Below the pieces are notes generated by a model. It saw only the letters and a list, made by a program, of their open reading frames with translations. It had not been told where the DNA came from and searched no databases. A stretch of DNA of 64,000 bases from Deltaproteobacteria bacterium (GTDB taxonomy: Bacteria > Desulfobacterota > Binatia > DP-6): NCBI GenBank assembly GCA_005879795.1, contig VBKJ01000134.1, positions 2,515 through 66,514 of the forward strand, written 5' to 3'. The position numbers were made by a program, and so were the translations under genes. Positions 11,738 to 34,654 of the stretch are shown here, piece after piece; position 1 is the first letter of the stretch; each line of letters starts with the position of its first letter.

Positions 11738-11739
11738 AT

Positions 11740-13183: not shown

Positions 13184-13332
13184 CAGCGAGAGCCGGAAGC
13201 GCAGCGCACGACCGACGAGGCGTGTCGAACGCACCCGGCGCTCCGCGCCGCGGGCGCACGGGAGCAGCGAGCACCCCCTCCGATCGCTCGCCGCAGCCGG
13301 CATGGTCACCCGACCGCCGCTAGCCAACTAGC

Positions 13333-14100: not shown

Positions 14101-14108
14101 GAGACGCC

Positions 14109-15086: not shown

Positions 15087-15845
15087 TCACCCCGCCATCG
15101 TGAGTCCGCCCGACACGCTCAGCACCTGTCCGGTCACGTAGGCGGCCTCGTCCGAGACGAGATAGGCGACCGCGCCGGCCACGTCCTCGGGCTGGGCCAG
15201 CCGGCCGAGCGGGATGGTCCGCTGCATGCTGGCCAGGATCTTCTGGCCGCGCTCGCCCGCCATCACGTCGCGCAGCAGCTGGGTGTCCGCGGGGCCGGGG
15301 CAGACCACGTTCACCGTGATGCCGTGGCGGGCCAGCTCCCGCGCGAGCGCCTTCGAGAAGCCGATGAGCGCTGCCTTGCAGCCGGAGTACACCGCTTCGC
15401 CCGTGCTGCCCACGCGCCCGGCGTCCGAGGAGATGCTGACGATCCGGCCGCGCCCGCGCGCGACCATGCCCTGCACCACGGCGCGCGTTGCGTTGAGCGC
15501 GCCCTTGAAGTTGACGGCGATCAGCCGGTCCCAGAGCGCCGGGTCGCTCTCGAGGAAGGGCGCCAGGCGCTCCCAGCCGGCGTTGTTGACGAGCACGTCG
15601 ATCGGGCCGAGGGCATCACCGACGGAGCCCACGGCGGCCTCGACGGCGACCAGGTTTCTCACGTCGGCGGGGGCGCCGAGCGCCCGCCCGCCCGCGGCGA
15701 CGATCTCGTTCGCGACCGCGCGCGCGCTCGCACCGTCCAGGTCGGCGATGCCGACCGCCATCCCGGCGCGCGCGAGGCGGAGCGCGATGGCGCGGCCGAT
15801 GCCGCGCCCACCGCCCGTCACGAGCGCGACCGCGTCGGTCAATTG
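15087..15845 (-). CDS. SDR-family oxidoreductase (3-hydroxyacyl-CoA / 3-oxoacyl reductase-like)
   Basis: Glycine-rich NAD(P)-binding loop TGGGRGIG, catalytic motif YSGCKAALIGFSK and the NNAG motif. The probable TTG start overlaps the MaoC stop. Confidence 0.75.
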   Translation of the reverse strand, partial: QLTDAVALVTGGGRGIGRAIALRLARAGMAVGIADLDGASARAVANEIVAAGGRALGAPADVRNLVAVEAAVGSVGDALGPIDVLVNNAGWERLAPFLESDPALWDRLIAVNFKGALNATRAVVQGMVARGRGRIVSISSDAGRVGSTGEAVYSGCKAALIGFSKALARELARHGITVNVVCPGPADTQLLRDVMAGERGQKILASMQRTIPLGRLAQPEDVAGAVAYLVSDEAAYVTGQVLSVSGGLTMAG

Positions 15846-16273
15846 CGCGACGGGAGGGCCGCGCTGAAGGTGCCGCTCACCGCGACTTCGCCCTTCTGGT
15901 TGAGCGCCAGCACCTCGCCGTCGATGCGCTTCTCGCCGTTGTGCTCGTACTTCTTGGTGACCTTGCCCTTGCAGGTGATGGTGTCGCCCGGCCAGACGCG
16001 CGTCGCGAAACGCACCTTCATGCGGCGGAGGTTCTCGGCGCCGACGTAGTCGGTCACGCACTTGCCGACGAAGGCCGCGGTGAGCATGCCGTGTCCGAAG
16101 ACGCTCGGGTTGCCCGCCGCGCGCGCGAACTCCTCGTCGGTGTGGATGGGGTTGAAGTCGCCCGAGGCGCCCGCGTAGCGGACCAGGTCCATGCGCGCCA
16201 AGCGCTCGACCACGAAGGGCGGGACCGCGCCACCCTCCTGCACGTCCTCGAAGAAGAGCTTCCTCCGCTCCAT
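15839..16273 (-). CDS. MaoC-like (R)-specific enoyl-CoA hydratase, hot-dog fold, subunit B
   Basis: 144 aa. Contains the MaoC signature (RYAGASGDFNPIHTDEEFA). Confidence 0.75.
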   Translation of the reverse strand: MERRKLFFEDVQEGGAVPPFVVERLARMDLVRYAGASGDFNPIHTDEEFARAAGNPSVFGHGMLTAAFVGKCVTDYVGAENLRRMKVRFATRVWPGDTITCKGKVTKKYEHNGEKRIDGEVLALNQKGEVAVSGTFSAALPSRN

Positions 16274-16283
16274 GTGCGCCTCC

Positions 16284-16733
16284 CTACGCCTTGACCGTTC
16301 CTTCGGTCATGATGAGCGTGTTGCGCGAGTACGCTACGACCTCGTCCCGCTGGTTGCGGCACTCGCTCTCCATGAGCACGAACAGCATGTTCCCGCCGCG
16401 GGAGCCCTGCTTCTCGAAGACGTCCTTGGTGCGAGAGCGGATCCGGAGCACGTCGCCGGCCCGGATGGGCTTCAGGTACTCGAACTCCTGCTCGCCGTGC
16501 AGGAGCCGGCGCATGTCGAGCTTGACGGCGCGCACGCCGCCGCTGGTCGCACCCTCGGTCCAGTGCGCGACCGTCATCAGGAAGGTGGGCGGCACGAGCG
16601 CGTCGTCGCCGGTGAAGGCTGGGTTGTCGTCCTTGATGGCGCGCGCGAACTCGCGGATCTTCCCGTACTCCACCCGCAGGGTGGTCTCGGGCCCCCACTG
16701 GCCGATGGCGGACCGGTCGATCTCCCAGGTCAT
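16284..16733 (-). CDS. Hot-dog-fold dehydratase/hydratase N-terminal-type subunit (MaoC N-terminal-like), subunit A
   Basis: 149 aa starting MTWEIDRSAIG. Its ATG overlaps the ACAD stop (ATGA). It pairs with the adjacent MaoC ORF, as in heterodimeric ChsH1/H2- or BbsH-like hydratases. Confidence 0.6.
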   Translation of the reverse strand: MTWEIDRSAIGQWGPETTLRVEYGKIREFARAIKDDNPAFTGDDALVPPTFLMTVAHWTEGATSGGVRAVKLDMRRLLHGEQEFEYLKPIRAGDVLRIRSRTKDVFEKQGSRGGNMLFVLMESECRNQRDEVVAYSRNTLIMTEGTVKA

Positions 16734-17863
16734 AACCCGATCAGTTGCGCGACGATCTCGCGGTTCCAGGTCGCGTCGCCGAAGGTCACCTCGGAGCTCT
16801 TCGCGCGCTTGAAGTAGATGTGCATGTCGTGCTCCCAGGTGAAGCCGATGCCGCCGTGGATCTGGATACCCTCGCCGGCGGTGTGCCGGTAGGCATCCGA
16901 GCAGTAGGCCTTTGCCATTGCAGCTGCAAGGGGGCCCTCGGGCACGTCGTTCGCGACCGCCCAGGCCGCGTAGTAGGTCGCGGACTTCGAGCTCTCCACC
17001 TCGACCAGCATGTTGGCGCACTTGTGCTGGATCGCCTGGAAGCTGCCGATCGGGCGCCCGAACTGCTCGCGCACCTTGGCGTAGTCGACCGACATCTCGA
17101 GGACCTTCTGGGCTCCGCCGCACATCTCGGCCGAGAGCCCCACCTTGCCGCGGTCGACCACGCGCTCGAGGAGCTTCCAGCCCGCGCCCGCCTGGCCGAG
17201 CACGCGCTCCGCGGGCACGCTCACGTCCGCGAGCGCCAGCTCGCAGAGCTTGCGCGTCTGGTCCATGGTCTTGAGCAGCGTGGCGGTGACGCCGGGCGCC
17301 TTCGCGTCGACGAGGAAGAGGCTCACGCCCTCGGCACCCGTCGAGCCGGGAGCGCGGCCGGCGACGATCAGCAGATCGGCCGTGTGTGCGTCGGGGACGA
17401 AGAGCTTGGTCCCGGAGAGCTTGTAGCCCCCGGCCGCCGGCCGCGCCTCGAGCCCGATGCCCTCCGCGTCCCAGCGCGCGCTCGGCTCGAGCTGGGCGAG
17501 GGTGACGCGCAGCCTGCCCGCCGCGAGCCTCGGCAGGAGGTCCTCCTTCTGCGCCGCGCTCCCGCCCGCGTCGATCGCCACCGCGCCGACCAGGGTCGAG
17601 AAGAACGGGCCCGGCAGCACGACGCGGCCCATCTCCTCGAGGACGACGATCATGTCGACGAAGTCGAGGCCCGCGCCGCCGTGCGCCTCGGGGAGGATGA
17701 GGCCCATCCACCCGAGCTCGGCCATCTTCCGCCACTGCTCGTCGCGGAAGCCCTGCTCGTCCTCCATCATCTGGCGGACGTAGGTCATGGGGCATTCCTT
17801 GGCGAGGAAGTCGCGGGCCGATTTGCGCAGCATCTCCTGCTCTTCGCTGAAGCCGAAGTCCAT
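16730..17863 (-). CDS. Acyl-CoA dehydrogenase
   Basis: 377 aa starting MDFGFSEEQEMLRKSARDF. The ACAD C-terminal helical domain (QIHGGIGFTWEHDMHIYFKRAK) is present. Confidence 0.85.
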   Translation of the reverse strand: MDFGFSEEQEMLRKSARDFLAKECPMTYVRQMMEDEQGFRDEQWRKMAELGWMGLILPEAHGGAGLDFVDMIVVLEEMGRVVLPGPFFSTLVGAVAIDAGGSAAQKEDLLPRLAAGRLRVTLAQLEPSARWDAEGIGLEARPAAGGYKLSGTKLFVPDAHTADLLIVAGRAPGSTGAEGVSLFLVDAKAPGVTATLLKTMDQTRKLCELALADVSVPAERVLGQAGAGWKLLERVVDRGKVGLSAEMCGGAQKVLEMSVDYAKVREQFGRPIGSFQAIQHKCANMLVEVESSKSATYYAAWAVANDVPEGPLAAAMAKAYCSDAYRHTAGEGIQIHGGIGFTWEHDMHIYFKRAKSSEVTFGDATWNREIVAQLIGL

Positions 17864-17931
17864 CGCCGTCCCTTCTCAGCCGTTGGCGAGCCCGGTCACG
17901 CAGCCGGCCACGGCCACACGCTCGTGGATGT

Positions 17932-19320
17932 TCATGTCGGCCTCGCTTTCCAGAAGTAGTTGTTGAAGCCGCCACCCTCGTGGATGCGGCGGAACACGAG
18001 CTCGAGGGGCATGTCGATCTCGACCCGCTCGGGCTCGCAGTCCGTGAGCTGGCAGTAGAGCCGGCCCCCGCCGTCCAGGTCGATCACCGCGTGCGAGGTG
18101 GGCGGGTCCGGGCTCTCGAAGAGGTAATCGTTGGTGAAGGTGAAGAGCCTCCCGCGCCGCGCGAGCTTCACCTCCTCGAGCCCGCCCGGGTGCGCGCACT
18201 CGATGCACACGCGGTGCTTCGGGAACTGGACCGTGCCGCACTTGGGGCACCTGCCGCCGTAGAGCGGGAGCAGCTCCTTGCGGTCGCGGAACATGACCAC
18301 CGCCGACGACGGGTCGCTGGTGACGGTCTCCCTGCGCACGAGCCCGCGGAAGCGCGCGTAGCGGCCGTAGGACGGGAGCGTGCGCTTCACCTCGATCTGC
18401 CGCCACACGCTGGGGCCCGCGGCCGCCGCCGGCGCGGTCACCCGCAGGAGGAGCGCGTCGGCCCCGTCGCCGTAGCCCGCGACCAGGATCAGGTCGCCGG
18501 GCTTCGCGCGCTCGAGTGCGGCGGCGAGGGCGAGGAGCGGCTGCGCCGCGCCCGTGTCGCCGACCGTCGTCCAGAAGCCGTCCTGGAGCTGCCGCTTCGC
18601 ATCGAGGCCGAGCGCCTTGGCGACGGCCTGCGGCGCGCGGAGGTTGGGGGTGGGCAGGATGACCGTGGCGAGGTCCTGGGGCGGGACCCTCGCCTTCGCG
18701 AGCACGCCCTTCACCGCCTCGCCGAGGACGCGGCCGTAGCCGTACCGGGCCTCGAACGCGCCCGGGAAGCTCCTCGGGAATTCCTGCTCCCGCGTCCGCC
18801 AGGTGCCCAGGAACTCGTCCGCGATCGAGTGCGTGGCGACCACCTGGACGCGCTCCGCCCCCCTGCCGAGGAGCACCGCCGCGCCCGCATCGCCGTAGCT
18901 CTGCTCGGCGATCGAGTCGGGCTCGCCCAGCCGGCACTCGCCCGCGGCGACCAGGACGCCGCGCGCGCCGCCCGCGAGCGCGTCGAGCCCGGCCAGCAGC
19001 GCCGAGGTGGCGGCGCGCAGCGTGTCGGTGAAGTCGGCGGTACGCGTCGCGCCCGGCAGGTCGAGGACGGCGGCGATGGTCGCGGCGCCCTGCTTCTCCG
19101 TGTACGGCGAGGTGGTGGTCGCGAAAAAGACAGCGTCGGGCCGCTCGCCCGCCCCCTCCAGCGCGAGCGCGGCGTTCACCGCCAGCGTGAGGCTGTCCTC
19201 GTCGTGGTTGGCGACCGCCTTCTCGCCGCCGGCCGCCTGCCCGCCCCATTCCCTGGCGATCAGCTCGCGCGGGAGCCGGTAGCGCGGGATGCAGGCGGCG
19301 GCGGCCACGATGCCGGGCAT
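17932..19320 (-). CDS. Thiolase-superfamily HMG-CoA-synthase-like enzyme fused to a C-terminal DUF35 (Zn-ribbon + OB-fold) domain
   Basis: 462 aa from MPGIVAAAACIPRYRL (ATG 19320..19318). The C-terminus has a GGRCPKCGTVQFPKHRVCIECA zinc ribbon typical of DUF35. Confidence 0.65.
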   Translation of the reverse strand: MPGIVAAAACIPRYRLPRELIAREWGGQAAGGEKAVANHDEDSLTLAVNAALALEGAGERPDAVFFATTTSPYTEKQGAATIAAVLDLPGATRTADFTDTLRAATSALLAGLDALAGGARGVLVAAGECRLGEPDSIAEQSYGDAGAAVLLGRGAERVQVVATHSIADEFLGTWRTREQEFPRSFPGAFEARYGYGRVLGEAVKGVLAKARVPPQDLATVILPTPNLRAPQAVAKALGLDAKRQLQDGFWTTVGDTGAAQPLLALAAALERAKPGDLILVAGYGDGADALLLRVTAPAAAAGPSVWRQIEVKRTLPSYGRYARFRGLVRRETVTSDPSSAVVMFRDRKELLPLYGGRCPKCGTVQFPKHRVCIECAHPGGLEEVKLARRGRLFTFTNDYLFESPDPPTSHAVIDLDGGGRLYCQLTDCEPERVEIDMPLELVFRRIHEGGGFNNYFWKARPT

Positions 19321-19339
19321 GACGGCTGGATCCCCCCTG

Positions 19340-20470
19340 TCAGACGACGCCGCGCGCGCGCAGCCCCGCGACGTCGGCGCGCGAGTACCCAAGCGCGGCG
19401 AGGACGGCGTCGGTGTGCTCGCCGAGCTCCGGGGGCGGCGTGCGGATGGTGGGCGGCGTGTCGGAGAGCTTGACCGGGTTGCCGAGCGTGCGCCGCCCGT
19501 CGCCCTGCTCGACCACCATGCCGCGGTGGCGCACCTGCCGATCGGCGAGCGCCTCGCCGAGCGTCGCCACCGGGCCGAAGCAGATGTCGAGGTCGGCCAG
19601 CTCCGCGACCCACTCGGCCATCGTCTTCTCGCGGAACCGGGCCCGCAGGCGGCGAAACATGTCCTCGCGCTCCGCCCCCTCGGCGAACTGCTTCTCGACG
19701 AGCTCCGGCATGCCGAGGCGCTCGCAGAGCGTGCGCCAGAAGTGCGGCTCGAGGGCGCCCACCGTCACGTGGCGGCCGTCGCGGGTCTCGTAAATGGCAT
19801 AGCAGGGGTGGTGGCCCGTGAGCATGGTGTCGCCGCGCGCCGGCTCCTGCTTCTCGGCGAGATAGCGCATCACGTTCACCACCTGCCAGGCGAGCGCACC
19901 GTCCAGCATGGCGATGTCGACGGACTGCCCGCTGCCCGTCTCCTCGCGCGCCGCGAGGGCCGCCAGGATGCCCACCGCCGCCATGAGCGCGCCCCCGCCG
20001 ATGTCGGCGATCTGCACGCCCGGGATGACGGGCGGTCCGCCCGCCGGCCCGGTCAGCCCGATCACGCCCGCGAAGCCCAGGTAGTTGACGTCGTGCCCGA
20101 CGCGGTCGCGATAGGGCCCGTCCTGGCCGTAGCCGGAGATCGAGCAGTAGACGAGGCGCGGATTCAGCTGCCCGAGCGTCTCGTAGTCGACCCCCAGGCG
20201 CGCCGCCGCCCCGGGCCGCGAGCCCTCGAGCACCACGTCCGCGTCGCGCGCCAGGCGGTGGAAGATGGCGCGCCCCTCGGGCACCTTCAGGTTGAGGGTC
20301 AGGCTCCGCTTGTTGCGGCCGAGGAGCGGGATGCCCATGCCCATCGGGTCGGTGGGCGAGTAGACGGCGAGCACGTCCATCCCGAGGTCCGCGAGCAGCA
20401 TGGAGCAGAACGGCCCCGGCAGCTGGCGCGACAGATCCAGCATCCGGAACCGCGACAGCGCACCGGGCAT
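19340..20470 (-). CDS. CoA-transferase family III (CaiB/BaiF/BbsEF-type)
   Basis: 376 aa. Family III features: LKVPEGRAIFHRLARDADVVLE, the RPG motif and GYGQDGPYRDRVGHD. Confidence 0.8.
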   Translation of the reverse strand: MPGALSRFRMLDLSRQLPGPFCSMLLADLGMDVLAVYSPTDPMGMGIPLLGRNKRSLTLNLKVPEGRAIFHRLARDADVVLEGSRPGAAARLGVDYETLGQLNPRLVYCSISGYGQDGPYRDRVGHDVNYLGFAGVIGLTGPAGGPPVIPGVQIADIGGGALMAAVGILAALAAREETGSGQSVDIAMLDGALAWQVVNVMRYLAEKQEPARGDTMLTGHHPCYAIYETRDGRHVTVGALEPHFWRTLCERLGMPELVEKQFAEGAEREDMFRRLRARFREKTMAEWVAELADLDICFGPVATLGEALADRQVRHRGMVVEQGDGRRTLGNPVKLSDTPPTIRTPPPELGEHTDAVLAALGYSRADVAGLRARGVV

Positions 20471-20850
20471 GATCCGGCTCGAGTACTACGATCGCGCCAC
20501 CCGTGACAACCTCCGCCGAGGGAGTGCTGTCCCCTCCAGACCGCGCCACGCCCGAGCGGGGATCGTTGCGGCCGGTCCCGTCTCGTGCCGCAAGGATCCC
20601 GGGCGTCTCGGCGTAGCATGGACCGCCTGACGCCGCTGAGCGGATGGAGCGTTGATGAAGGCTTTGGAACCTGGGGCGGCACGTCTGCCGACCGCGGCTT
20701 CGCCGCGGTCGGCACGACCCGAGCGCCCGAAGGGCGCGAGTCGGCCACGAGGGGGAGCCGCGCGCCCCGCGCGCGGCGACGGGGGTCCGGGGGGCATCGG
20801 AAGCGCGGAGCGCGGCGAAGCCGCGCGAGCACTGGACGGGCCCCCCGGGT

Positions 20851-22119
20851 CTAATGCCCGGCGTTCACCAGCGCCGCGACCGTGAACCAGTCGTCCGTCA
20901 CCCCCGCCTTCTCGCCCTGGTTGAAGTACCAGCCCTGCTCGCCCGGAAAACGGTGGCTCGGGAGGGAGGCCTTGGTCGCGTGCTCGAGCTGCACGTCGAC
21001 CATGACGATGGCCGGGGCGAAGATGCGCTCGTCCGGGTACTCGACGGCGCCGGGCGTGTCGAGGATCTTCCTCCGGATCATCACGTCGTTGATCCAGATC
21101 TTCCACAGCTCCCCGGCGCGATCGTACATGTCCGAGTACGGGATGCCCCACGCCTCCCTGTCGATGAAGAGGACGCGCTTGCCGAAGGCGTACTGCGAGA
21201 GCTTGGAGACGCCCTCGACGACGTGCACGCGCCGCCGCTCCCACACCTCGTCGAAGGCCCAGTCGACCCTGTCGTTCCACTGGACCGGGAAGTGCCGGCC
21301 GTGCGCCACCGCGAGCAGATCCCGCTCGCCGAGGTAGCGCCAGTCCATCCACGCGATGTGCCCCGCGTAGCCGCCGTAGCTGTCGACGTCCGTGTCCTGC
21401 CCGAAGAGCGCGTCCGAGCGCTGCGCGGTGGAGAGCCGGCGCACGCGGCGCAGCGCCGGCAGGTAGAGCCAGGCGTCGTCCTGCTTGGCAGCGTCCAGGT
21501 AGCGGTAGCTGACGAAGCCGACGCCCTTCACGTCGAAGGGCTCGAGGATCGGGTAGAGCCCCTGCTGGAGCTCGTAGCCGCTCGGGTTGGGCGCCTTCTC
21601 GGGCTTCGGGTCGACGTAGAGCCGCCCGACCCAGTAGAGGCGCCGGAAGTGATCGATCAAGAAGTGACGCTCGACCGTCATCGGGCCGTGGTCCGCGATC
21701 GCCCCGGTGTCGGCGTCGAAGTTGCGCGCATCGAGGTCGTCGGTCGCGAAGAAGTTGTGGTCGTAGTTCCACATGATCTTGACCGCGACCTGCGGGTCCT
21801 TCGCGTCGATGAAGGGGAAAGGCAGCCCCGCGACGTAGTCGCGCAGCGTCACCCCGTCGGCGGCGAGCCGCACCTGGCCCGAGTACCGCTCCGTCGCCTC
21901 CCGGTAGGCGCGCGGCCACTCGATGCGCCGGCTCTCGCCGACGGTGAGCGGGAACCCGTGCCGAACACACCACTCGAGCCCGGGCGAGATCAGCTCCCGC
22001 ACCTGCTCGACGTTCGCCTCGGTGATGCGGTCCCCCGCTGCAACGTCCGCCCGTGCTGCCCCGCCGAAGACGAGCGCCACCACGCCCGCCACGGCGACCC
22101 GCGCTGCCGGAAGCCCCAC
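20851..22119 (-). CDS. Secreted DUF1329-like family protein, paralog 1 of 4 (start uncertain, between 22119 and 22272)
   Basis: It shares ISPGLEWC..GFP, LYLPALRRVRRLSTAQRSDALFGQDTDVDSYGGY and SHRFPGEQGWYFNQGEKAG ... AALVNAGH with the three downstream paralogs. It has a signal peptide (VAVAGVVALVFGGAARA). Assignment to Pfam DUF1329 is from memory of the family. Confidence 0.6.
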   Translation of the reverse strand: MGLPAARVAVAGVVALVFGGAARADVAAGDRITEANVEQVRELISPGLEWCVRHGFPLTVGESRRIEWPRAYREATERYSGQVRLAADGVTLRDYVAGLPFPFIDAKDPQVAVKIMWNYDHNFFATDDLDARNFDADTGAIADHGPMTVERHFLIDHFRRLYWVGRLYVDPKPEKAPNPSGYELQQGLYPILEPFDVKGVGFVSYRYLDAAKQDDAWLYLPALRRVRRLSTAQRSDALFGQDTDVDSYGGYAGHIAWMDWRYLGERDLLAVAHGRHFPVQWNDRVDWAFDEVWERRRVHVVEGVSKLSQYAFGKRVLFIDREAWGIPYSDMYDRAGELWKIWINDVMIRRKILDTPGAVEYPDERIFAPAIVMVDVQLEHATKASLPSHRFPGEQGWYFNQGEKAGVTDDWFTVAALVNAGH

Positions 22120-22273
22120 TGAACGCCGGCCGCGCTGTCGCCGCGGCGCTTCATGCGGGCGCGGGGGCGCCGGCGCAGCGCCTATGAGGCGCCGAGCGCG
22201 ACGGGCGGCCAGAGCTCCGGCGCCGAGCGGCGCCGAATCGAAGCGGAGCCGGCGCCCCCGCGCCCGCAGCACG

Positions 22274-23539
22274 TCAATGCCCTGCGTTCACGAGCGCGGC
22301 CACCGTGAAGAACTCGTCGGAGATCCCTGCCTTCTCGCCCTGGTTGAAGTACCAGCCCTGCTCGCCCGGGAAGCGGTGGCTCGGGAGCGCCGCCTTGGTC
22401 GCGTGCTCGAGCTGCATGTCCACCATGACGATGGAGGGCTGGAACCCGATGTCGTCCGGGTACTCGATCACGCCCGCGCCGTCGAAGGCCTTCTTCTTGA
22501 AGCTCCAGTCGTTGATCCAGATCTTCCACAGCTCGCCCGAGCGGTCGTAGATGTCGGAGTACGGGACCACCCACGCCTCCTTGTCGATGAAGATGACGCG
22601 CTTGCCGTAGGCGTACTGCGGCAGCTTGGAGACGCCCTCCACCACCCACACCTTGCGTTTCTCCCACACGTCGTCGAAGGCCCAGTCGGTCTTGTCGTCC
22701 CACTTCACGGGGTAGTGCCGCGCGTGCATGGTGCCGAGCAGCTCGCGCTCGCCGATGAACTTCCAGGTCATCCAGGCGACGTGGCCGGCGTAGCCGTAGT
22801 AGCTGTCGACGTCGGTGTCCTGGCCGAAGAGCGCGTCCGAGCGCTGGGCGGTGGAGAGGCGGCGCACGCGGCGGAGCGAGGGCAGATAGAGCCACGAGTC
22901 GTCCTGCTTCGTGGGGTCGATGTAGCGCTGGCCGACCGCGCCCACGCCCTTCAGGTCGAACGGCTCGAGGACCGGGTAGAGCCCGAGCTGGCTCCGGTAG
23001 CCGTTCGGGTTCGGCTTCTCGGGTTTGGGGTCGACGTAGAGGCGGCCGGTCCAGAACTGCGAGCGCAGGTGGTCGAGGAGGAAGTGCCGCTCGATGCTCA
23101 TCGGGCCGTGGTCGGCGACGGCGCCCGTGTCGGCGTCGAAGTTCCGCAGATCGAGATCGTCGGTCGGGTTGAACTTGTACTCGTAGTCCCACATGATCTT
23201 GAGCGCGATCTGCGGATCCTTCGGATCCAGGTCCGGGAAAGGCTGGCCGGCGACGAAGTTCTGCACGCTGAGGCCGTCGGGCGCGAGCTTCACCTGGCCG
23301 GAGTACTTCTCGGTGGCCTCCTTGTAGGCCTTCGGCCACTCGATGCGCCTCGGCTCCACGATCGTCATCGGGAAGCCGCGCTTGATGCACCACTCCATGC
23401 CGGGCGAGATCAGGTCCTTCACCTTGTCGATGTTCTGATCGGTGATCCTGTCGCCGGGTGCGACCTCCGCGCGCGCCGCCAGCCCGAGCAGCGCGACGCC
23501 GAGCGCCACCGCGACCGCCACGCCGGGTCTTCTCGTCAT
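22274..23539 (-). CDS. Secreted DUF1329-like family protein, paralog 2
   Basis: 421 aa starting MTRRPGVAVAVALGVALLGLAARA (ATG 23539..23537 verified). It carries the same conserved blocks. The 801-aa ORF in this frame is read-through. Confidence 0.65.
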   Translation of the reverse strand: MTRRPGVAVAVALGVALLGLAARAEVAPGDRITDQNIDKVKDLISPGMEWCIKRGFPMTIVEPRRIEWPKAYKEATEKYSGQVKLAPDGLSVQNFVAGQPFPDLDPKDPQIALKIMWDYEYKFNPTDDLDLRNFDADTGAVADHGPMSIERHFLLDHLRSQFWTGRLYVDPKPEKPNPNGYRSQLGLYPVLEPFDLKGVGAVGQRYIDPTKQDDSWLYLPSLRRVRRLSTAQRSDALFGQDTDVDSYYGYAGHVAWMTWKFIGERELLGTMHARHYPVKWDDKTDWAFDDVWEKRKVWVVEGVSKLPQYAYGKRVIFIDKEAWVVPYSDIYDRSGELWKIWINDWSFKKKAFDGAGVIEYPDDIGFQPSIVMVDMQLEHATKAALPSHRFPGEQGWYFNQGEKAGISDEFFTVAALVNAGH

Positions 23540-23556
23540 CTTCGGCTCCTTCGCGA

Positions 23557-24825
23557 TCAGTGCCCCGCGTTCACGAGCGCCGCGACCGTGAACCACTCGT
23601 CGACGACGCCGGCCTTGTCGCCCTGGTGGTAGTACCAGCCCTGCTCGCCCGGGAAGCGGTGGCTCGGGAGCGCCGCCTTGGTCGCGTGCTCGAGCTGCAT
23701 GTCCACCATCACGATCGCGGGCGCGAAGGGCAGCTCGTCCTCGTACTCGAGCACCCCCGCGCCCTCGAAGGCCTTCTTGCGGAAGCCCACGTCGTTGATC
23801 CAGATCTTCCACAGCTCGCCGGAGCGGTCGTAGATGTCGGTGTAGGGGATGCCCCAGGTCTCCTTGTCGATGAAGAGCACGCGCTTGCCGTAGGCGTACT
23901 GCGGCAGCTTCGAGATGCCCTCGAGCACGTAGACGTGCCGCTTCTCCCACACCTCGTCGAAGGCCCAGTCGACCTTCTCGTGCCACTTCACCGGGTAGTG
24001 CTGCGCGTGGACGATGCCCAGCAGGTCGCGCTCGCCGAGGTACTTCCAGTCCATCCAGCCGACCTGGCCCGCATAGCCGTAGTAGCTGTCGACGTCGGTG
24101 TCCTGGCCGAAGAGCGCGTCGGAGCGCTGCGCGGTGGACAGGCGACGGACCCGCCGCAGTGACGGCAGGTAGAGCCACGAGTCGTCCTGCTTGTCCGGGG
24201 AGAGGTAGCGGTTGCCGAGCGCGCCCACGCCCTTCAGGTCGAAGGGCTCGAGCACCGGGTAGAGGCCCTGCTGCGCGCGGTAGCCGTTGGGGTTCGGCTT
24301 CTCCGGCTTGGGGTCGACGTACAGGCGCCCGTTCCAGAACAGGCGGCGGAAGTGGTCGAGGAGGAAGTGGCGCTCGATCGTCATCGGCCCATGGTCGGCG
24401 ATGGACCCGGTGTCGGCGTCGAAGTTCCGCAGGTCGGTGTCGTCGAGGCCGTTCACGTACCCGTAGTCGTAGTTGAACATGACCTTGATGACGAACTGCG
24501 GGTCCTTCGCGTCGGGATTGGGGAAGGGCTGGCCGGCGACGTAGTTCTGCATCGTGCGGCCGTCGGGCGACAGCTTCACCTGCGCGGCGTACTTCTCGGT
24601 CGCCTCCTTGTAGGCACGTGGCCACTCCACCGCCTTGGTCGCCCCGATGGTCATCGGGAAGCCGTGCTTGATGCACCACTCCATCCCGGGCGAGATCAGC
24701 TCCTTCACCTTGTCGATGTTCGCCTCGGTGATCCTGTCCCCGATCGCGACGTCGGCGCGCCCGGGCGCCGCGAGCAGCACGGGCACGACGGCGAGCGCGG
24801 CGGCGAGCCTCCGTGTCGTGGTCAT
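23557..24825 (-). CDS. Secreted DUF1329-like family protein, paralog 3
   Basis: 422 aa starting MTTTRRLAAALAVVPVLLAAPGRA (ATG 24825..24823 verified). Confidence 0.65.
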   Translation of the reverse strand: MTTTRRLAAALAVVPVLLAAPGRADVAIGDRITEANIDKVKELISPGMEWCIKHGFPMTIGATKAVEWPRAYKEATEKYAAQVKLSPDGRTMQNYVAGQPFPNPDAKDPQFVIKVMFNYDYGYVNGLDDTDLRNFDADTGSIADHGPMTIERHFLLDHFRRLFWNGRLYVDPKPEKPNPNGYRAQQGLYPVLEPFDLKGVGALGNRYLSPDKQDDSWLYLPSLRRVRRLSTAQRSDALFGQDTDVDSYYGYAGQVGWMDWKYLGERDLLGIVHAQHYPVKWHEKVDWAFDEVWEKRHVYVLEGISKLPQYAYGKRVLFIDKETWGIPYTDIYDRSGELWKIWINDVGFRKKAFEGAGVLEYEDELPFAPAIVMVDMQLEHATKAALPSHRFPGEQGWYYHQGDKAGVVDEWFTVAALVNAGH

Positions 24826-24911
24826 CGATTCGCCCTCCCTCGGCTGGAAACGCCCGGACCGCCGGCCGATCGCCTGGCGGCCCCGGGTGGCGACATCCCC
24901 GACGCTCCGCT

Positions 24912-26189
24912 CTAGTGTCCGGCGTTCACCAGCGCGGCCACCGTGAACCAGTCGTCGGTGACGCCCGCCTTCTCGCTCTGGTTGAAGTACCAGCCCTGCT
25001 CCCCCGGGAAGCGGTGGCTCGGGAGCGAGGCTTTGGTCGCATGCTCGAGCTGCATGTCCACCATGACGATCGCCGGGATGAAGCCGCGGTCCTCCCCGTA
25101 GTCGATCACGTTGGCGCCCTCGAAGGCCTTCGGGCGGAAGCTCACGTCGTTGACCCAGACCTTCCAGAGCTCGCCGGAGCGGTCGTAGATGTCGGAGTAC
25201 GGGATGATCCAGGCCTCTTTGTCGACGAAGATGACGCGCTTGCCGTAGGCGTACTGCGGGAGCTTGGAGATGCCCTCGATGACGTACACCCGGCGCTTCT
25301 CCCACGTCTCGTCGAATGCCCAGTCGACCTTGTCGTTCCACTTCACCGGGTAGTTCTTCGCGTGGTAGCAGCTCAGGAGGTCGCGATCGCCCAGGTACTT
25401 GAAGTCCATCCAGGCAATGTGGCCGCTGTAGCCGTAGTAGCTGTCGACGTCGGTGTCCTGCCCGAAGAGCGCGTCCGAGCGCTGCGCGGTGGAGAGGCGG
25501 CGCACCCGCCGGAGTGACGGCAGGTAGAGCCACGAGTCGTCCTGCTTCTCGGAGGAGATGTAGCGGTTGCCGAGCGCGCCCACGCCCTTCAAGTCGAACG
25601 GCTCGAGGATCGGGTAGAGGCCCTGCTGGGCGCGGTAGCCGTTGGGGTTCGGCTTGTCGGGCTTGGGATCGACGTAGAGCCGGCCGGTCCAGAAGAGGCG
25701 GCGGAAGTGGTCGAGCAGGAAGTGGCGCTCCACCGTGAGCGGCCCGTGGTCGGCGATCGCCCCCGTGTCGGCATCGAAGTTGCGCAGGTCGACGTCGTCG
25801 GTGGTCAGGTGGTTGTAGCTCCAGTTCCACATGATCTTGAGCGCGACCTGCGGGTCCTTGGTGTCGACGTTCGGGAAGGGCAGCCCGGCGACGTAGTTGA
25901 GGACGTTGAGACCATCGGGCGTGAGCTTCACCTGGCTCGCGTACTTCTCGGTCGCCTCCTTGTACGCCTTCGGCCACTCGACCCGCTTGGTCTCGCCGAT
26001 GGTCATCGGCCAGCCGTGCTTGATGCACCACTCCATCCCGGGCGAGATGAGATCCTTGACCTTGTCGATGTTCTGCTCGGTGATCCGGTCGCCGGGTACG
26101 ACGTCGGCGCGCGCGGTGAAGGGAAGGATCGCGAGCGCGAACGTGGCGGCGCCCGCCAGCGCCAGCCACCAGCCGGGCTTCTTCGACAT
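24912..26189 (-). CDS. Secreted DUF1329-like family protein, paralog 4
   Basis: 425 aa starting MSKKPGWWLALAGAATFALAILPFTARA (ATG 26189..26187 verified). Confidence 0.65.
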   Translation of the reverse strand: MSKKPGWWLALAGAATFALAILPFTARADVVPGDRITEQNIDKVKDLISPGMEWCIKHGWPMTIGETKRVEWPKAYKEATEKYASQVKLTPDGLNVLNYVAGLPFPNVDTKDPQVALKIMWNWSYNHLTTDDVDLRNFDADTGAIADHGPLTVERHFLLDHFRRLFWTGRLYVDPKPDKPNPNGYRAQQGLYPILEPFDLKGVGALGNRYISSEKQDDSWLYLPSLRRVRRLSTAQRSDALFGQDTDVDSYYGYSGHIAWMDFKYLGDRDLLSCYHAKNYPVKWNDKVDWAFDETWEKRRVYVIEGISKLPQYAYGKRVIFVDKEAWIIPYSDIYDRSGELWKVWVNDVSFRPKAFEGANVIDYGEDRGFIPAIVMVDMQLEHATKASLPSHRFPGEQGWYFNQSEKAGVTDDWFTVAALVNAGH

Positions 26190-26305
26190 GGTCGGCTCTC
26201 CTCTGCCGTCGCTACGGGTTGGGGGGCTCGGGGTCAGCCTGGCTCCTACCTCGCCCAATGTCCGAACGTCAACCTAGGCTGCCGTGGTTACCCCGACAGA
26301 GACTC

Positions 26306-26872
26306 CTAGCCGCCGATCGGCGCCCCCGCCTCCGCGGCCGGGACACGGTCCGCCGACAGGGCCTGGAAGATGAGATCCTCGTAGTAGCGCACGTTCCGTC
26401 CGATCAGGACCACGTCCGGGGTCCCTCGACGCCGCGCGTAAACGGCGGTGCCGGTCGGATTCGGCCCGCCGATGGTGACCTCGAGCCGGTCGCCGCTCGT
26501 GCAGACCACTTCAACCCTGGCCGCCTGCTGGCCGAGCCCGTAGGTGTCCGCGTCTGCGTCCGCCCCTCCGACGCGGGCGATCTCGGTCGCATCGGCGAGG
26601 GCGTTCGCGAACGCGGCGATCAGGTCCGGGGCGATGGGCGCCCCCGCGGGCTCGACGATCGTCCACCCCGCCCCCTCGCGCCGCGAGACGACGGTCCGGC
26701 TGCCGCGCACCAGCCGGACCTCGCGCAGCGTTGCGGGGTCCAGCCGGAGGAAGGATGGCGGCGCGGGGGCCTCCGTGCGGGCCGGCGGCTCCATACGCCC
26801 CTCGACGAACCAGTACTCGCCCGCCAGGGCGGCGAGCACGAGGTAGAGCAGCGCCACCTGCCGCCAGCGCAT
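26306..26872 (-). CDS. DUF4340-like secreted protein (accessory to GldG-type ABC systems)
   Basis: 188 aa with a signal anchor. It sits immediately downstream of GldG, as DUF4340 proteins typically do. It contains the pattern W.IVEPAGAPIAPDLIAAFANALAD. Confidence 0.4.
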   Translation of the reverse strand: MRWRQVALLYLVLAALAGEYWFVEGRMEPPARTEAPAPPSFLRLDPATLREVRLVRGSRTVVSRREGAGWTIVEPAGAPIAPDLIAAFANALADATEIARVGGADADADTYGLGQQAARVEVVCTSGDRLEVTIGGPNPTGTAVYARRRGTPDVVLIGRNVRYYEDLIFQALSADRVPAAEAGAPIGG

Positions 26873-26874
26873 GG

Positions 26875-28242
26875 TCAGCCCCGCCGCCGCCAGGCGGCGA
26901 GCGCCAGCCCGAGCGCGGCGAAGAGGGCCGGCTCGACGACGGCGGTGCCCCAGAAGATCGCGTTCCCCTGCTCGTTCGAGACGTAGAACTGCTCCACGCC
27001 GAGCTCCTGGCGCCGGGGCCGGTGCGAGAGCCCCTGCGGATCGCGCGCCAGCCAGTTGACCGTGTTCGCGAACAGATCCTTGTTGCCGAGGTACTCGATG
27101 AAGAAGTTGTTGGCGAACTCCGCGTTGCCGTAGACGATGAGGCGCCCCTGCTGCGGCTCCGCGCCCGGCGGCGTGAGGGCGCGGAAGGCGACCTCGAGCC
27201 CGACCGTCACCGGCCCGGAGCGGTCACGCCCGGCCTCGAAGGCGGGCGACCCGTGGCGCAGGACGCCCGTGTCCGTCGTCGCCCAGCTCGCCGGGCTGGT
27301 GCGCAGGAAGCCGACCGCGTTGACCGTGCCGGCGTCGTCGGGGAGCACGTTGACCGAGCGCGTGAGCGAGAAGACGGGCGGCGCGTCGAGCGGCCCCAGG
27401 ATGGGGTGATCACCGCGCGCGAAGGGGACCTGCATGGTGAGCAGCTCGCCGCCGTAGAGACGCGCCTCGGGATCGACCACCACGTCGGGCGGGAGCGAGA
27501 CGTCATAGCGGTGGAGGAAGGCGGCCAGCTCGGGCGCCCGCAGCGGGTCGAGCATGATGAGCGCCTGGCCAGGGCGCTGGAGGTAGCGGTCGAGGACGGT
27601 CAGCTCCTCGGAGAGGAAGCTCTTGCGCGGGCCGGCGATGACGAGCACGGCGGTCTCGACCGGCACGTCGTCGCCGATGAGCGACACCGGGCGGACCTCG
27701 TAGTACTCCTGCTCGAGGACCACGCGCGCGGTCGAGTAGCCCTCGCGCCGGTCCGTGCTGTTCGGGTCGCCCTCGCCGTGCCCGAGGACCCAGCCGACCG
27801 TCTTCCGCTCCTGGCGGGTCACCTGGAGGAGGGCTGCCATGAGCACTTCCTCGCGGGGGTTGGAGAACACCCGCCGGCGGCCCTCGCTCTCGACCACCAG
27901 CGCGCCGTACGAGTCGACCCCGTACTGCCGGGCCAGCGCCGGGCTGCGGTTGACGTCGAGGTACTCGACGTGCACCCGCGGGCTGCGCGCCGTCACCTGC
28001 CGGAGGAGGTCGCGGATGAAGAGGTTGCGCGGGTCCTGCGCGCGCAGGAAGGCCACGACGTGGACGTCGGCGGCGAGGCCATCCAGGATCTTGCGCCCCT
28101 GGTCGGAGAGGGTGTAGCGGCGCTCGGCTGTGAGATCGAGCCGCCACGCCCGCCGGTCGAGGATCGCCTGGCCGAGGAGGAAGATGCCGAACAGGGCCGG
28201 CACGGCCAGCACGATGCGCAGCCGCTGCGCACCGACCCTCAT
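26875..28242 (-). CDS. GldG-like ABC-transporter auxiliary (gliding-motility-associated ABC_transp_aux family) protein
   Basis: 455 aa starting MRVGAQRLRIVLAVPALFGIFLL. The ATG overlaps the permease stop (ATGA, 28239-28242). It has an N-terminal TM segment, a large periplasmic domain and a C-terminal TM segment. Confidence 0.55.
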   Translation of the reverse strand: MRVGAQRLRIVLAVPALFGIFLLGQAILDRRAWRLDLTAERRYTLSDQGRKILDGLAADVHVVAFLRAQDPRNLFIRDLLRQVTARSPRVHVEYLDVNRSPALARQYGVDSYGALVVESEGRRRVFSNPREEVLMAALLQVTRQERKTVGWVLGHGEGDPNSTDRREGYSTARVVLEQEYYEVRPVSLIGDDVPVETAVLVIAGPRKSFLSEELTVLDRYLQRPGQALIMLDPLRAPELAAFLHRYDVSLPPDVVVDPEARLYGGELLTMQVPFARGDHPILGPLDAPPVFSLTRSVNVLPDDAGTVNAVGFLRTSPASWATTDTGVLRHGSPAFEAGRDRSGPVTVGLEVAFRALTPPGAEPQQGRLIVYGNAEFANNFFIEYLGNKDLFANTVNWLARDPQGLSHRPRRQELGVEQFYVSNEQGNAIFWGTAVVEPALFAALGLALAAWRRRG

Positions 28243-28985
28243 CGCCGGCCCCGCCACTGGCGCGCCTCGAGCACGCGCAGCGTGGCCCACACGAAGAGGC
28301 CGGCCACGAAGGCGAAGTAGAAGACGTCGCGTAGCTCGACCAGCCCGACCGAGAAGGGCTGGAAGTGGTTGAAGAGCGAGATGGCGCGCACCACGGGCAG
28401 CGTCCCGGCCGCGCTGGCGGCCTCGTTCCAGGAGAGCAGCCAGAGGAGCAGGAGCGGCAGCGCGGTGAGAAACCCCGCCAGCACCTGGCTGTCGGTGAGC
28501 GAGGAGACGAACAGGCCGTACGACGCGCACGCGAGCGAGAAGAGGATGAGCCCCAGGTACCCGGCGACGAGAGGCTTCAGGGCGAAGGGCTGGACGTGGT
28601 ACACCCACGCCGGATAGACGAGCGTCCCGCCGAGGAGCGCGCCGATCACCACCAGGCAGGCGCCCAGCTTCGCGGCCACGATGGCGCGGTCGCCGAGCGG
28701 GTAGGTGAGCAGCAGCTCGAGCGTCCCGAGCCGGCGCTCCTCGGCGAGGAGGCGCATGGTGAGGAGCGGAATGGCGAAGATCAGCACCAGGCGGATGTCG
28801 ATGAGCAGGATCTGCCAGAAGTTCTCCATGATGTTCAGGCCGAAGCCGAAGGTGATGAAGTAGATGAGATCCGAGTGGAAGTAGTATCCGGTGTAGGCGA
28901 GGAAGGCGGCCGCCACGAGATAGACGAGCGGCGAGCCGAAGTAGGAGCGCAGCTCCTTGCGAAAGAGCGCGACGAAGCTCCGCAC
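28239..28985 (-). CDS. ABC-2 family transporter permease (GldF-like)
   Basis: 248 aa with 6 predicted TM segments in ABC-2 topology. Confidence 0.7.
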   Translation of the reverse strand: MRSFVALFRKELRSYFGSPLVYLVAAAFLAYTGYYFHSDLIYFITFGFGLNIMENFWQILLIDIRLVLIFAIPLLTMRLLAEERRLGTLELLLTYPLGDRAIVAAKLGACLVVIGALLGGTLVYPAWVYHVQPFALKPLVAGYLGLILFSLACASYGLFVSSLTDSQVLAGFLTALPLLLLWLLSWNEAASAAGTLPVVRAISLFNHFQPFSVGLVELRDVFYFAFVAGLFVWATLRVLEARQWRGRR

Positions 28986-28988
28986 GCT

Positions 28989-29936
28989 CTAGCTCCCGGG
29001 CCGATCCGCCGACCCGACCAGGTGGACGAACAGATCCTCGAGGGTGGGCGGGCTCGCCCGCACCTCGAGGAGCGTCCAGCCGCGCGCCACCATCGCGGCG
29101 CCGAGCGCCCGCTGCACCGGCTCGGGATCGTGCGCGAAGAGTGCGAAGGGAGTGCCCGCGAGGCCGTCCGGCCGACGGCGCTCCACCCGCACGACGCCCG
29201 GCAGCGTGCCGAGCGCGGCGGCCACCGTATCGGCGGGACCGTCCACGCGCACAGCGAGCTGTGCCAGGCCCGCCAGGCGCTGGGCCAGGCCCTCCGGCGT
29301 GTCGACCGCCACCAGCCGCCCGCGGGAGAGGATCACGATGCGCGAGCACAGGGCGGCCGCCTCGGAGAGAATGTGCGTCGAGAGGAGCATCGTACGCCCG
29401 GCGAGCGTACGCAGCAGCGCCCGCATCTCGACCGTCTGCATCGGGTCGAGGCCGACGGTCGGCTCGTCGAGCACGAGCACGTCCGCGTCCCCGACCAGCG
29501 CCTGCGCGAGCCCGACCCGCTGGCGATACCCCTTCGACAGCTTGCCGGCCAGGCGATCGGCGACCTCGGCGAGGCCGCACCGCGCGATGGCATCGGCCAC
29601 CGCGGCGCGGCGCGCGCGCCCGCCGAGCCCCTTCACCTCGGCCACGAAGGCCAGGTAGCGGCGCACCGTCAGCTCCGGATAGAGGGAGACCTGCTCGGGG
29701 AGATAGCCGATGCGCCGCCGGGCGGCCGCCGGCTGCTCGGCGACGTCCGCCCCGTCGATGCACACCCTCCCGGCGGTGGGTGGGAAGTAGCCGGTCAGCA
29801 CGCGCATCAGCGTGCTCTTGCCGCTGCCGTTCGGCCCGAGCAGCGCCGCCACCTCGCCCCGCCCGATGGTGAACGACACGTCGTCCACCGCGCAGGTCGT
29901 CCCGTAGTACTTGGTCAGGTGCTCGACGCTGATCAC
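28989..29936 (-). CDS. ABC transporter ATP-binding protein (GldA-like)
   Basis: 315 aa with a Walker A (GPNGSGKST), a signature (LSKGYRQRVGLAQAL) and a Walker B (VLVLDEPTVGLD). Confidence 0.8.
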   Translation of the reverse strand: MISVEHLTKYYGTTCAVDDVSFTIGRGEVAALLGPNGSGKSTLMRVLTGYFPPTAGRVCIDGADVAEQPAAARRRIGYLPEQVSLYPELTVRRYLAFVAEVKGLGGRARRAAVADAIARCGLAEVADRLAGKLSKGYRQRVGLAQALVGDADVLVLDEPTVGLDPMQTVEMRALLRTLAGRTMLLSTHILSEAAALCSRIVILSRGRLVAVDTPEGLAQRLAGLAQLAVRVDGPADTVAAALGTLPGVVRVERRRPDGLAGTPFALFAHDPEPVQRALGAAMVARGWTLLEVRASPPTLEDLFVHLVGSADRPGS

Positions 29937-34104: not shown

Positions 34105-34174
34105 GCGGCCCCTCCCCCGGGGCGCGGGAACCGCGTCCCGTCGACGGGCGCCTAACAGACCCTCTCTCGAGATG

Positions 34175-34654
34175 TCAATGGGACGAGCCTCCCCCGGCAT
34201 CCGCCTTAGGGAACCACTTGGAGACGTCCTTGGGCTCCACGATCACCTGGCGGTCGACCTTCCAGGCGCCATCCTCCTTGAGGAGGGTGTAGAGCTCGTA
34301 CTCGGTGAGCCCGAGCTGGTTCACGAAGCGGTCCTGGGAGGAGAGGACGTTCGGCACCCAGGCCGTGGCGCCCTCGACCTTGCCGGGATGGACATGGAAC
34401 TCGAAGATCTTGACGTCCGCGAACGCCATGCCGGTCTTCTGCTCCTTCACCCAGACCTCGCGGTCCTTCCCCTGCTTCATCGCCTTGGAGACCAGGTCGT
34501 AGGCGGCGTCGAACCTTCCGTCCTTGAGGGCCTGCAGGTACCGCCGGACGGTCTCCTCCGGCGAGAGCGGGGTGGTCTCCGCGGCTGGCACTCTCGCGGC
34601 GACGACGAGCCCGAGTGCGCCGAACGCCCACGAGAGCGAGCGCGCGCGAGGCAT
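34175..34654 (-). CDS. Secreted NTF2-like hypothetical protein
   Basis: 159 aa with a signal peptide (MPRARSLSWAFGALGLVVAARVPAAE). The motif ETVRRYLQALKDGRFDAAYDL is typical of NTF2/SnoaL-like lipoprotein families. Confidence 0.4.
   Translation of the reverse strand: MPRARSLSWAFGALGLVVAARVPAAETTPLSPEETVRRYLQALKDGRFDAAYDLVSKAMKQGKDREVWVKEQKTGMAFADVKIFEFHVHPGKVEGATAWVPNVLSSQDRFVNQLGLTEYELYTLLKEDGAWKVDRQVIVEPKDVSKWFPKADAGGGSSH

Follow-up and report, generated by a model that had tools for sequence, protein, structure and literature searches.

Why does a soil bacterium keep four diverged copies of one exported protein side by side? We addressed this question in a 64,000-nt stretch of a Binatia genome (assembly GCA_005879795.1, contig VBKJ01000134.1, positions 2,515 to 66,514), hereafter called the window. 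Binatia are soil bacteria without cultured members, to which a broad alkane and methylotrophic potential has been ascribed. The minus strand of the window carries four intact, co-directional open reading frames (ORFs), designated P1 to P4, in a tandem array (Table 1). The sequence-only reading, an earlier annotation of this DNA, had described them as paralogs of a secreted family and had not stated the strand. We found that the array belongs to the catalogued family DUF1329 and, beyond that reading, is the periplasmic module of a larger conserved cluster for transport and catabolism. In our interpretation, which we consider rather probable, P1 to P4 are periplasmic carriers of hydrophobic molecules within this envelope-transport cluster.

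The four ORFs encode proteins of 421 to 425 aa and lie where proteins of about 420 aa had been annotated. The ATG codons of P4 and P3 are preceded by the Shine-Dalgarno sequences GAGGAG and GGGAGGG, respectively. The start of P1 is uncertain: the GTG at 22119 has no obvious Shine-Dalgarno sequence, translation could instead begin at the GTG at 22092, and the protein is 409 or 422 aa long in metagenome gene calls. P1 was the most divergent copy, as had been noticed from the sequence, with 70–72% protein identity to P2, P3, and P4 against 75–78% among the latter three (tblastn). The mean column identity of the four-way protein alignment was 83%, and the conserved blocks quoted earlier, ISPGMEWCIK.GFPMTI, WLYLPSLRRVRRLSTAQRSDALFGQDTDVDSYYGY, and SHRFPGEQGWYFNQGEKAG...FTVAALVNAGH, were all seen in it, with small substitutions in P1. 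P1 contains 12 Lys and 37 Arg residues compared with approximately 26 and 24 in the other copies, and its G+C content is higher. Where P1 deviates from the other copies, approximately 13–16 of the changes are conservative replacements of K by R that track the higher G+C content, indicating that part of the divergence of P1 is compositional and conservative. No fifth DUF1329 copy was detected by tblastn elsewhere in the window.

We compared the four proteins with family profiles. All of them matched PF07044 (DUF1329), with E-values of 2.9e-54 (P4), 4.1e-49 (P3), 4.6e-55 (P2), and 2.1e-50 (P1) and scores of 168–188 bits against a cut-off of 23.1, and covered profile positions 2 to 342–366 of 368. 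They also matched PF17131 (LolA_like / TP_0789-like) with 62–72 bits against a cut-off of 30, P4 scoring 72 bits; NCBIfam gave no match for P1 to P4. A phmmer search of the whole library returned 2445 representatives of 50%-identity clusters at E ≤ 1e-3, including 242 at E ≤ 1e-30. Metagenomes were rich in relatives with 73–86% identity, of which the named ones were 'Candidatus Binatia', and almost all loci recovered by conserved peptides (numbered with the prefix L below) came from metagenome-assembled genomes (MAGs) of Binatia or 'Deltaproteobacteria'. The window, with a G+C content of 67–76%, is a piece of a Binatia (Binatota) genome. P1 to P4 are new members of an already catalogued family, and the architecture surrounding them is a modest variant.

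Each protein begins with a presequence of 24–28 aa that contains one or two K/R residues, a hydrophobic core, and an ...A-R-A cleavage motif. The mature N-terminus directly after this motif is conserved as [DE]-V-x-x-G-D, where x-x is mostly x-P. The same presequence layout was found in 59 of 64 full-length homologues. The four presequences are of the Sec type by this heuristic, which agrees with the secretion proposed from the sequence. Cys is absent from all four presequences, and hence there is no lipobox. Judged in this way, P1 to P4 are exported by a Sec/signal peptidase I signal peptide as soluble periplasmic proteins, not as lipoproteins.

To describe the fold, we used profile searches and structure prediction. 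Profile searches of the PDB matched only the LolA-like structures 3bk5, 9tp6, and 4z48, over residues ~183–345, and returned no full-length DUF1329 structure. A first AlphaFold2 model, based on 39 sequences with 74–86% identity, had a predicted local distance difference test score (pLDDT) of 61 and did not resolve the most conserved region. The final input for P2 was a 126-sequence alignment that included relatives with 31–42% identity, obtained by searching with a distant Binatia DUF1329 protein. This model had a pLDDT of 87.6 and a predicted template modelling score of 0.88, and consisted of a mostly helical N-terminal region of ~100 residues followed by ~13 beta-strands in a LolA-type open beta-barrel. 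When the model was compared with the PDB using Foldseek (template modelling scores, TM, normalised to target length), the matches were 3bk5 (E=3e-17, TM 0.82), 9tp6 (LolA3 of Porphyromonas gingivalis, TM 0.83), 4z48 (deposited as a DUF1329 family protein, TM 0.76), and 3buu, and then LolA, RseB, and MucB at weaker scores. The predicted fold of P1 to P4 as a LolA-superfamily open beta-barrel is supported by these matches and by those of the PDB profile searches. The LolA-like part of the fold guessed from the sequence was thus borne out by profile, model, and Foldseek; for LppX-type lipid anchoring, we found no evidence and no lipobox.

The PF17131 structures 3bk5 (Vibrio), 9tp6, 4z48 (Desulfovibrio piger), and 3buu share the motif WLYLP-x-RRV-RR-S with P1 to P4 and have the same open beta-barrel (TM 0.69–0.83), at a sequence identity of 14–20%. 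These structures are only ~240–270 aa long and span residues ~125–400, whereas P1 to P4 add the ~100-residue N-terminal region. In LolA/LolB and LppX/LprG, lipid tails cross the periplasm inside an unclosed beta-barrel, and P1 to P4 resemble these proteins only in this general fold class. The match with LolA entries (TM 0.36–0.48, 6–12% identity) is at the superfamily level. P1 to P4 match no LolA/LolB sequence family, since Pfam gives only DUF1329 and PF17131, and no LolCDE-type (FtsX/MacB) genes were found among the window ORFs scanned. Unlike LolB and LppX, they lack a lipobox Cys in the presequence. P1 to P4 are neither LolA proper nor LppX/LolB-type lipoproteins.

We next compared the gene context of the array. 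The order YCF48-like BNR protein, resistance-nodulation-division (RND) transporter, ABC-2 type ATP-binding cassette genes, DUF4340, DUF1329, and catabolic genes is repeated in more than 12 Binatia MAG loci. The catabolic genes (15087..20470), downstream of the array and co-directional with it, are of the beta-oxidation type and are syntenic in Binatia loci. More distant DUF1329 genes, 35–40% identical (L040, L041, L042, and L047), still adjoin ABC-2, GldG, and DUF4340 genes; an RND gene is also present in L040, L042, and L047, and a BNR gene in L040 and L042.

The known DUF1329 proteins AmeB of Castellaniella defragrans, PP_0766 of Pseudomonas putida, and PhnK/DelCs14_1722 of Delftia share with P1 to P4 a full-length match to the DUF1329 hidden Markov model (HMM), a size of ~420–450 aa, a predicted periplasmic location, and a LolA-like fold. 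They are likewise linked to genes for a YCF48-like BNR propeller and an RND transporter of the MMPL type, putatively HAE3 in the window, with adjoining catabolic genes for hydrophobic compounds (PMC6394551; 10.1101/072470). The window differs from these loci in having four diverged tandem copies instead of one, no adjacent DUF1302 barrel, GldA/F/G-like ABC-2 and DUF4340 genes inserted between RND and DUF1329, a PDZ insert in the RND, and a lineage in Binatia, not Proteobacteria. Of the DUF1302-DUF1329-BNR-RND components of the AmeABCD type, three of four are present and co-directional, DUF1302 being missing locally.

Such genes show mutual cofitness in several bacteria (10.1101/072470), and growth of P. 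putida on Tween 20 and butyl stearate requires them (10.1101/2020.07.04.188060). In C. defragrans, both the tolerance of monoterpenes and the efflux of Nile Red depend in part on AmeABCD (PMC6394551). AlphaFold predictions place DUF1329 in contact with the DUF1302 barrel and the BNR/RND pair (PMC10866462, PMC13499233). Described DUF1329 genes are often part of islands for the catabolism of monoterpenes, phenanthrene, p-cresol, and steroids (10.1101/072470, PMC6394551).

In the proposed role, each paralog would hold a hydrophobic or amphiphilic molecule inside the cavity of the modelled barrel and would shuttle this cargo through the periplasm, thereby linking the inner-membrane transporters to the outer membrane. 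Several diverged carriers could widen the range of cargo or partners of one set of membrane machines. The blocks that are invariant in all four copies and less conserved family-wide may be common docking surfaces, and the variable segments may correspond to differences in cargo or partner. Ligand binding by these proteins, transport as uptake or as efflux, and specificities that differ among the four copies are what we infer here.

The same components could serve envelope biogenesis. DUF1329 would then take over a lipid or envelope component made by the cell from the GldAFG-like exporter, the RND, or both, and chaperone it to the outer membrane; the cargo would be hopanoid-like lipids, lipoproteins, or a surface polymer, and growth substrates would not be handled. 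'Export of a cell wall component' was proposed for the DUF1302/DUF1329/BNR/RND module on the basis of pleiotropic fitness phenotypes (Price et al., 10.1101/072470). The hopanoid exporter HpnN belongs to the HAE3 RNDs, and the RND in the window has weak matches to HpnN and BstA. The ABC genes resemble GldA/F/G, the nearest structural relatives of P1 to P4 are LolA-type carriers of lipoproteins or lipids, and an Mla-like system is located next to the cluster. Nevertheless, we regard this explanation as rather unlikely. The tight and conserved linkage to genes for CoA-transferase, acyl-CoA dehydrogenase, hydratase, and short-chain dehydrogenase/reductase (SDR) speaks against it, as does the frequent location of DUF1329 genes in catabolic islands mentioned above. 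Housekeeping export also poorly explains a range of one to four copies and the scattered orphan copies, some of which are flanked by insertion sequences (IS).

We also analyzed how the four copies diverged. Each copy has its own ortholog in MAG GB_EKS_MAG_00090 (loci L012 and L007), with 90–97% protein identity. The pairwise ratio of nonsynonymous to synonymous substitutions (dN/dS), a check suggested with the sequence-only reading, was 0.31–0.39 between paralogs by the Nei-Gojobori method, with a proportion of synonymous differences (pS) of 0.29–0.40; dS is probably underestimated and these ratios overestimated, because the G+C content at third codon positions (GC3) is ~0.97. Between orthologs it was 0.13–0.16 for P4 (L012_1 and L010_1), 0.12–0.19 for P3 (L012_2 and L023_1), 0.10 for P2 (L012_3), and 0.05 for P1 (L007, 97% identical). 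The ortholog values indicate that all four copies, including the divergent P1, are under purifying selection. A dN/dS of 1.2 for P3 against L017 was discarded, as the L017 gene is broken or frameshifted and split into two ORFs.

A neighbour-joining (NJ) tree of 52 homologues with 100 bootstraps gave a corresponding picture. P4 clustered with the first-slot copies of other arrays, P3 with L012_2, L023_1, and L017_1, and P2 with L012_3 and L016_2, so that each of the three grouped with slot-matched copies of relatives; P1 stood alone on a long branch. Bootstrap values of the near nodes were 83–100%. The slot-wise grouping indicates that the duplications predate the split of at least the nearest sampled lineages. 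By these comparisons, the four copies are ancient duplicates, each of which has been maintained, and the earlier view that they do not result from a recent amplification is upheld by their DNA identity, by the purifying selection on the ortholog of each copy, and by the slot-wise grouping across species. The number of DUF1329 genes in the slot varies: there is one in seven loci (L009, L014, L015, L020, L022, L026, and L051), two in L011, L013, and L021, at least two in L016, one full gene with a fragment in L008, and four in the window, in L001, and probably in L012 plus L007.

We identified 51 positions that are fixed inside each orthogroup and differ between groups. P1 alone deviates at 26 of them, several being K-to-R changes, and the remaining 25 involve other copies. 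These positions are consistent with different substrate specificities of the four copies, as is a dN/dS that is higher between paralogs than between orthologs. The interpretation given in the sequence-only reading is partly supported as a whole, sub-functionalisation being a possible outcome.

Alternatively, the four copies could be equivalent and kept for dosage or as parts of a hetero-oligomer, their divergence being mostly neutral or compositional. Long blocks are invariant in P1 to P4, including some that are less conserved family-wide (such as residues 130–146, residues 376–399, and the C-terminus), which fits shared partners. Many P1 differences are the conservative K-to-R changes tied to higher G+C content, and one or two copies suffice in relatives. 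We judge this explanation improbable, since each copy is a distinct orthologous lineage under strong purifying selection, slot-specific clades extend across several MAGs, and the 25 group-specific positions mentioned above differ in copies other than P1 alone. Gene conversion, the usual homogeniser of dosage repeats, is nearly absent. Only a run of 79 identical nt between P2 and P3, at codons ~377–403 in the QLEHATKAALPSHRFPGEQGWY block, exceeded the codon-shuffle expectation (p ~0.001) and is possibly a short gene-conversion tract; the other five paralog pairs stayed below this level of significance (p = 0.04–0.59). Gene conversion was accordingly rejected as the source of the conserved blocks.

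Another proposal is that DUF1329 and DUF1302 together form an esterase or hydrolase that acts on fatty esters, as suggested for PP_0765/PP_0766 from random barcode transposon-site sequencing phenotypes on Tween 20 and butyl stearate (10.1101/2020.07.04.188060). This is very improbable for P1 to P4: it is contradicted by the LolA-type carrier barrel fold, no hydrolase family or fold was among the matches, and the window contains no DUF1302 gene. A later structure-prediction case study also recast the PP_0765/PP_0766 pair as a transport system (PMC10866462). We found no supporting point for an assembly artefact or a tandem amplification of very recent origin, and this explanation is refuted, because the paralogs are only 79–84% identical in DNA (78.7–84.3% over the mature regions of all pairs, below the >95% named earlier as a sign of assembly duplication), the array recurs in six independent metagenome assemblies, and a second MAG holds orthologs of every copy.

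Several observations weigh against the role of P1 to P4 as carriers in an envelope-transport cluster. DUF1302 (PF06980), the canonical outer membrane partner, was absent from the window ORFs scanned, and tblastn with the DUF1302-like proteins of L040 and L042 gave no match in the window or in the syntenic loci. The outer membrane partner of this clade is therefore either encoded elsewhere or different. The best NCBIfam match of the RND, TIGR00921 (HAE3), reached 104 bits against a cut-off of 351.9. Published directions of transport conflict, with efflux in Castellaniella and a requirement for growth on esters in Pseudomonas. The absolute dN/dS values are soft at this GC3, where dS is probably too low, and the deep nodes of the NJ tree are poorly supported.

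The distribution of DUF1302 among other loci bears on this absence. A DUF1302-like barrel is encoded in or beside L040–L043 and L047, and immediately upstream of DUF1329 in L034, L035, L037, and L038. L040, L042, and L043 carry RND, DUF1302-like, and BNR genes, and L040 and L042 additionally carry ABC-2 genes. With this complete set of parts in distant Binatia-type clusters, the arrangement in the clade of the window looks derived.

A broader proposal, which we put forward tentatively and consider unlikely, is that Binatia possess a composite trans-envelope system for hydrophobic compounds that has been undescribed so far. In this system, one to four interchangeable DUF1329 carriers would serve a PDZ-bearing HAE3 RND/YCF48 pair and a GldAFG-like ABC-2/DUF4340 unit, with no linked DUF1302. 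If this is true, the radiation of DUF1329 into tandem, orphan, IS-flanked, and AMIN-fused copies would be part of the access of Binatia to hydrocarbons and greasy substrates. The Binatota genome paper leaves the movement of hydrophobic substrates across the envelope unaddressed (PMC8262859).

It is important to understand the function of DUF1329, since the family is of considerable size, its biochemical role has yet to be settled, and fitness and deletion studies connect it with the ability to grow on hydrophobic compounds or to tolerate them. Four diverged, individually conserved copies beside one transporter set are a convenient comparative system, which the one-copy and two-copy orthologous arrays in relatives extend. 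The 51 group-specific positions are candidate residues for ligand or partner specificity.

Table 1 Features of the DUF1329 array and its surroundings in the window.
Feature	Position	Strand	Remarks
P4	24912..26189	−	DUF1329 paralog, 425 aa, transcribed first; predicted signal peptide ~residues 1–28 (26106–26189)
P3	23557..24825	−	DUF1329 paralog, 422 aa; predicted signal peptide ~residues 1–24
P2	22274..23539	−	DUF1329 paralog, 421 aa; predicted signal peptide ~residues 1–24; used for structure model
P1	20851..22119	−	DUF1329 paralog, transcribed last, most divergent; 422 aa if GTG 22119 is the start
Small exported protein, no assigned family	34175..34654	−	No Pfam/NCBIfam match; N-terminus signal-peptide-like; first gene of block
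YCF48-like BNR beta-propeller, AmeC / PP_2018 type	33022..34200	−	PSII_BNR E=1.8e-42; Ycf48 NCBIfam match
HAE3/MMPL-type RND	30322..33006	−	894 aa; MMPL and PDZ Pfam matches, PDZ at residues ~206–293
GldA-like ABC ATPase	28989..29936	−	PF00005; TIGR03522 GldA 265 bits, below threshold
GldF-like ABC-2 permease	28239..28985	−	ABC2_membrane_2 and _3; TIGR03518 GldF 118 bits, below threshold
GldG-like ABC auxiliary protein	26875..28257	−	PF09822, DUF7088; TIGR03521 GldG below threshold
DUF4340 protein, N-terminal membrane anchor	26306..26872	−	PF14238; one N-terminal hydrophobic segment; directly upstream of array
Two G+C-rich hairpins in post-P1 spacer	20683..20737	−	−48 kcal/mol, z = −3.1 vs shuffles; 13-bp stem, GAA loop
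Family III CoA-transferase	19340–20470	−	Pfam; NCBIfam best match below cut-off
HMG-CoA-synthase-like protein fused to DUF35	17932–19320	−	Pfam; NCBIfam best match below cut-off
Acyl-CoA dehydrogenase	16730–17863	−	Pfam; NCBIfam best match below cut-off
MaoC-type hydratase pair	16284–16733 and 15839–16273	−	Pfam; NCBIfam best matches below cut-offs
BadH-like SDR	15087–15842	−	Pfam; NCBIfam best match below cut-off
MlaE	10168–11118	+	
Lcl_C/DUF1566 protein	11950–12939	+	
MlaF-like ATPase	13333–14100	+	
MlaD	14109–15077	+	

Among the genes upstream of the array, the first, encoding the small exported protein, is syntenic across Binatia loci at 55–69% identity. The RND matched MMPL with 60 bits against a cut-off of 20.5. 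Its PDZ insert was placed by hydropathy in periplasmic loop 1, between the first and second transmembrane segments, and was found in every syntenic Binatia RND, where it is less conserved than the remaining protein (49–65% identity); in distant DUF1329 clusters, for example L040 and L042, the RND lacks it. For docking of the invariant C-terminus ...LVNAGH to the PDZ domain, our comparison spoke neither for nor against. Orphan copies and clusters with a PDZ-less RND share the C-terminal pattern L-[IV]-x-[SA]-G-[HRK], which thus shows no specific co-variation with PDZ. The papers found are almost silent on DUF4340.

The array genes were found in the same order on contigs from six independent Joint Genome Institute (JGI) soil metagenomes, with 98–100% protein identity except for the P4-slot copy of L001 (92%). 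L001:368-5346 is a mosaic relative to window positions 24912–29936: its P3, P2, and P1 are ~100% identical, its P4 only 92%, and the ABC, GldG, and DUF4340 genes upstream of its array are 61–85% identical to those of the window. This pattern points either to recombination between strains at the array or to a contig that was assembled chimerically.

The spacer 3' of P1 (20471–20850) is 380 nt long compared with ~100 nt in single-copy relatives. Its two hairpins have no U tract and match no Rfam family; from their predicted folding, a role in terminating transcription or stabilising the RNA where the array gives way to the catabolic genes is conceivable. Nothing in the whole window reached the Rfam gathering threshold, and consensus scans for sigma-70 promoters and terminators performed no better than shuffles. 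Control of the cluster by sigma-54 was also rejected: the single perfect TGGCAC-N5-TTGC site (34783–34798) is on the plus strand, and the cluster is on the minus strand. This site, TGGCACGTCACTTGCT, is located 15 nt 5' of a 75-aa XRE-type helix-turn-helix ORF (34813–35039, +), which is followed by genes for an NtrC-type activator (35309–36700), CpaE-like/CpaF-like Tad secretion ATPases, and response regulators.

On the other side, an Mla/MCE-like lipid transport set (10168–15077, +) converges on the end of the cluster, and a similar ABC ATPase follows the SDR gene on the opposite strand in several syntenic loci. The DUF35 part fused to the HMG-CoA-synthase-like protein is a BbsA-like OB-fold domain. 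In relatives such as L009, the gene for this protein is followed by an SCP2-type thiolase gene, which the window does not have there; a thiolase gene is instead located ~21 kb away (40532–41659, −). Approximately 20 kb from the cluster, an MPAB_Lcp_cat protein (mpaB / rubber-oxygenase catalytic domain, E=1.4e-60) is encoded at 46008–46856 (−); it is unlinked to the array and may bear on how hydrophobic polymers or isoprenoids are degraded.

Close paralogs of P1 to P4 also occur as stand-alone orphans, two of which adjoin transposase-like genes. In MAG MFD00822.bin.1.250, two nearly identical orphan DUF1329 genes (L024:8098-17009 and L025) adjoin transposase-like ORFs, recognized by eye from N-terminal sequences, and a small Lcl_C-like ORF. 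By this evidence, mobile elements seem to have spread some of the DUF1329 paralogs.

Outside the window, AMIN-DUF1329 fusions of 666–690 aa were found at L055:10001-12073, L056:3408-5408, L058:7001-9043, and L059:5818-7836. In all four distinct clusters looked up, the fusion gene (P0132, P0134, P0136, and P0137) is divergent from, and ~200–300 bp away from, an AmoC-AmoA-PmoB copper membrane monooxygenase operon. Genes for a flavin adenine dinucleotide (FAD) ring-hydroxylase-like protein, an ABM monooxygenase, response regulators, an enoyl-CoA hydratase, and an aldo-keto reductase then follow. The Binatota genome paper describes these monooxygenase operons, and its passages on them that we searched name no such neighbour (PMC8262859). 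The location of AMIN-DUF1329 beside a monooxygenase operon is in line with DUF1329 carriers being linked to how hydrophobic substrates are handled.

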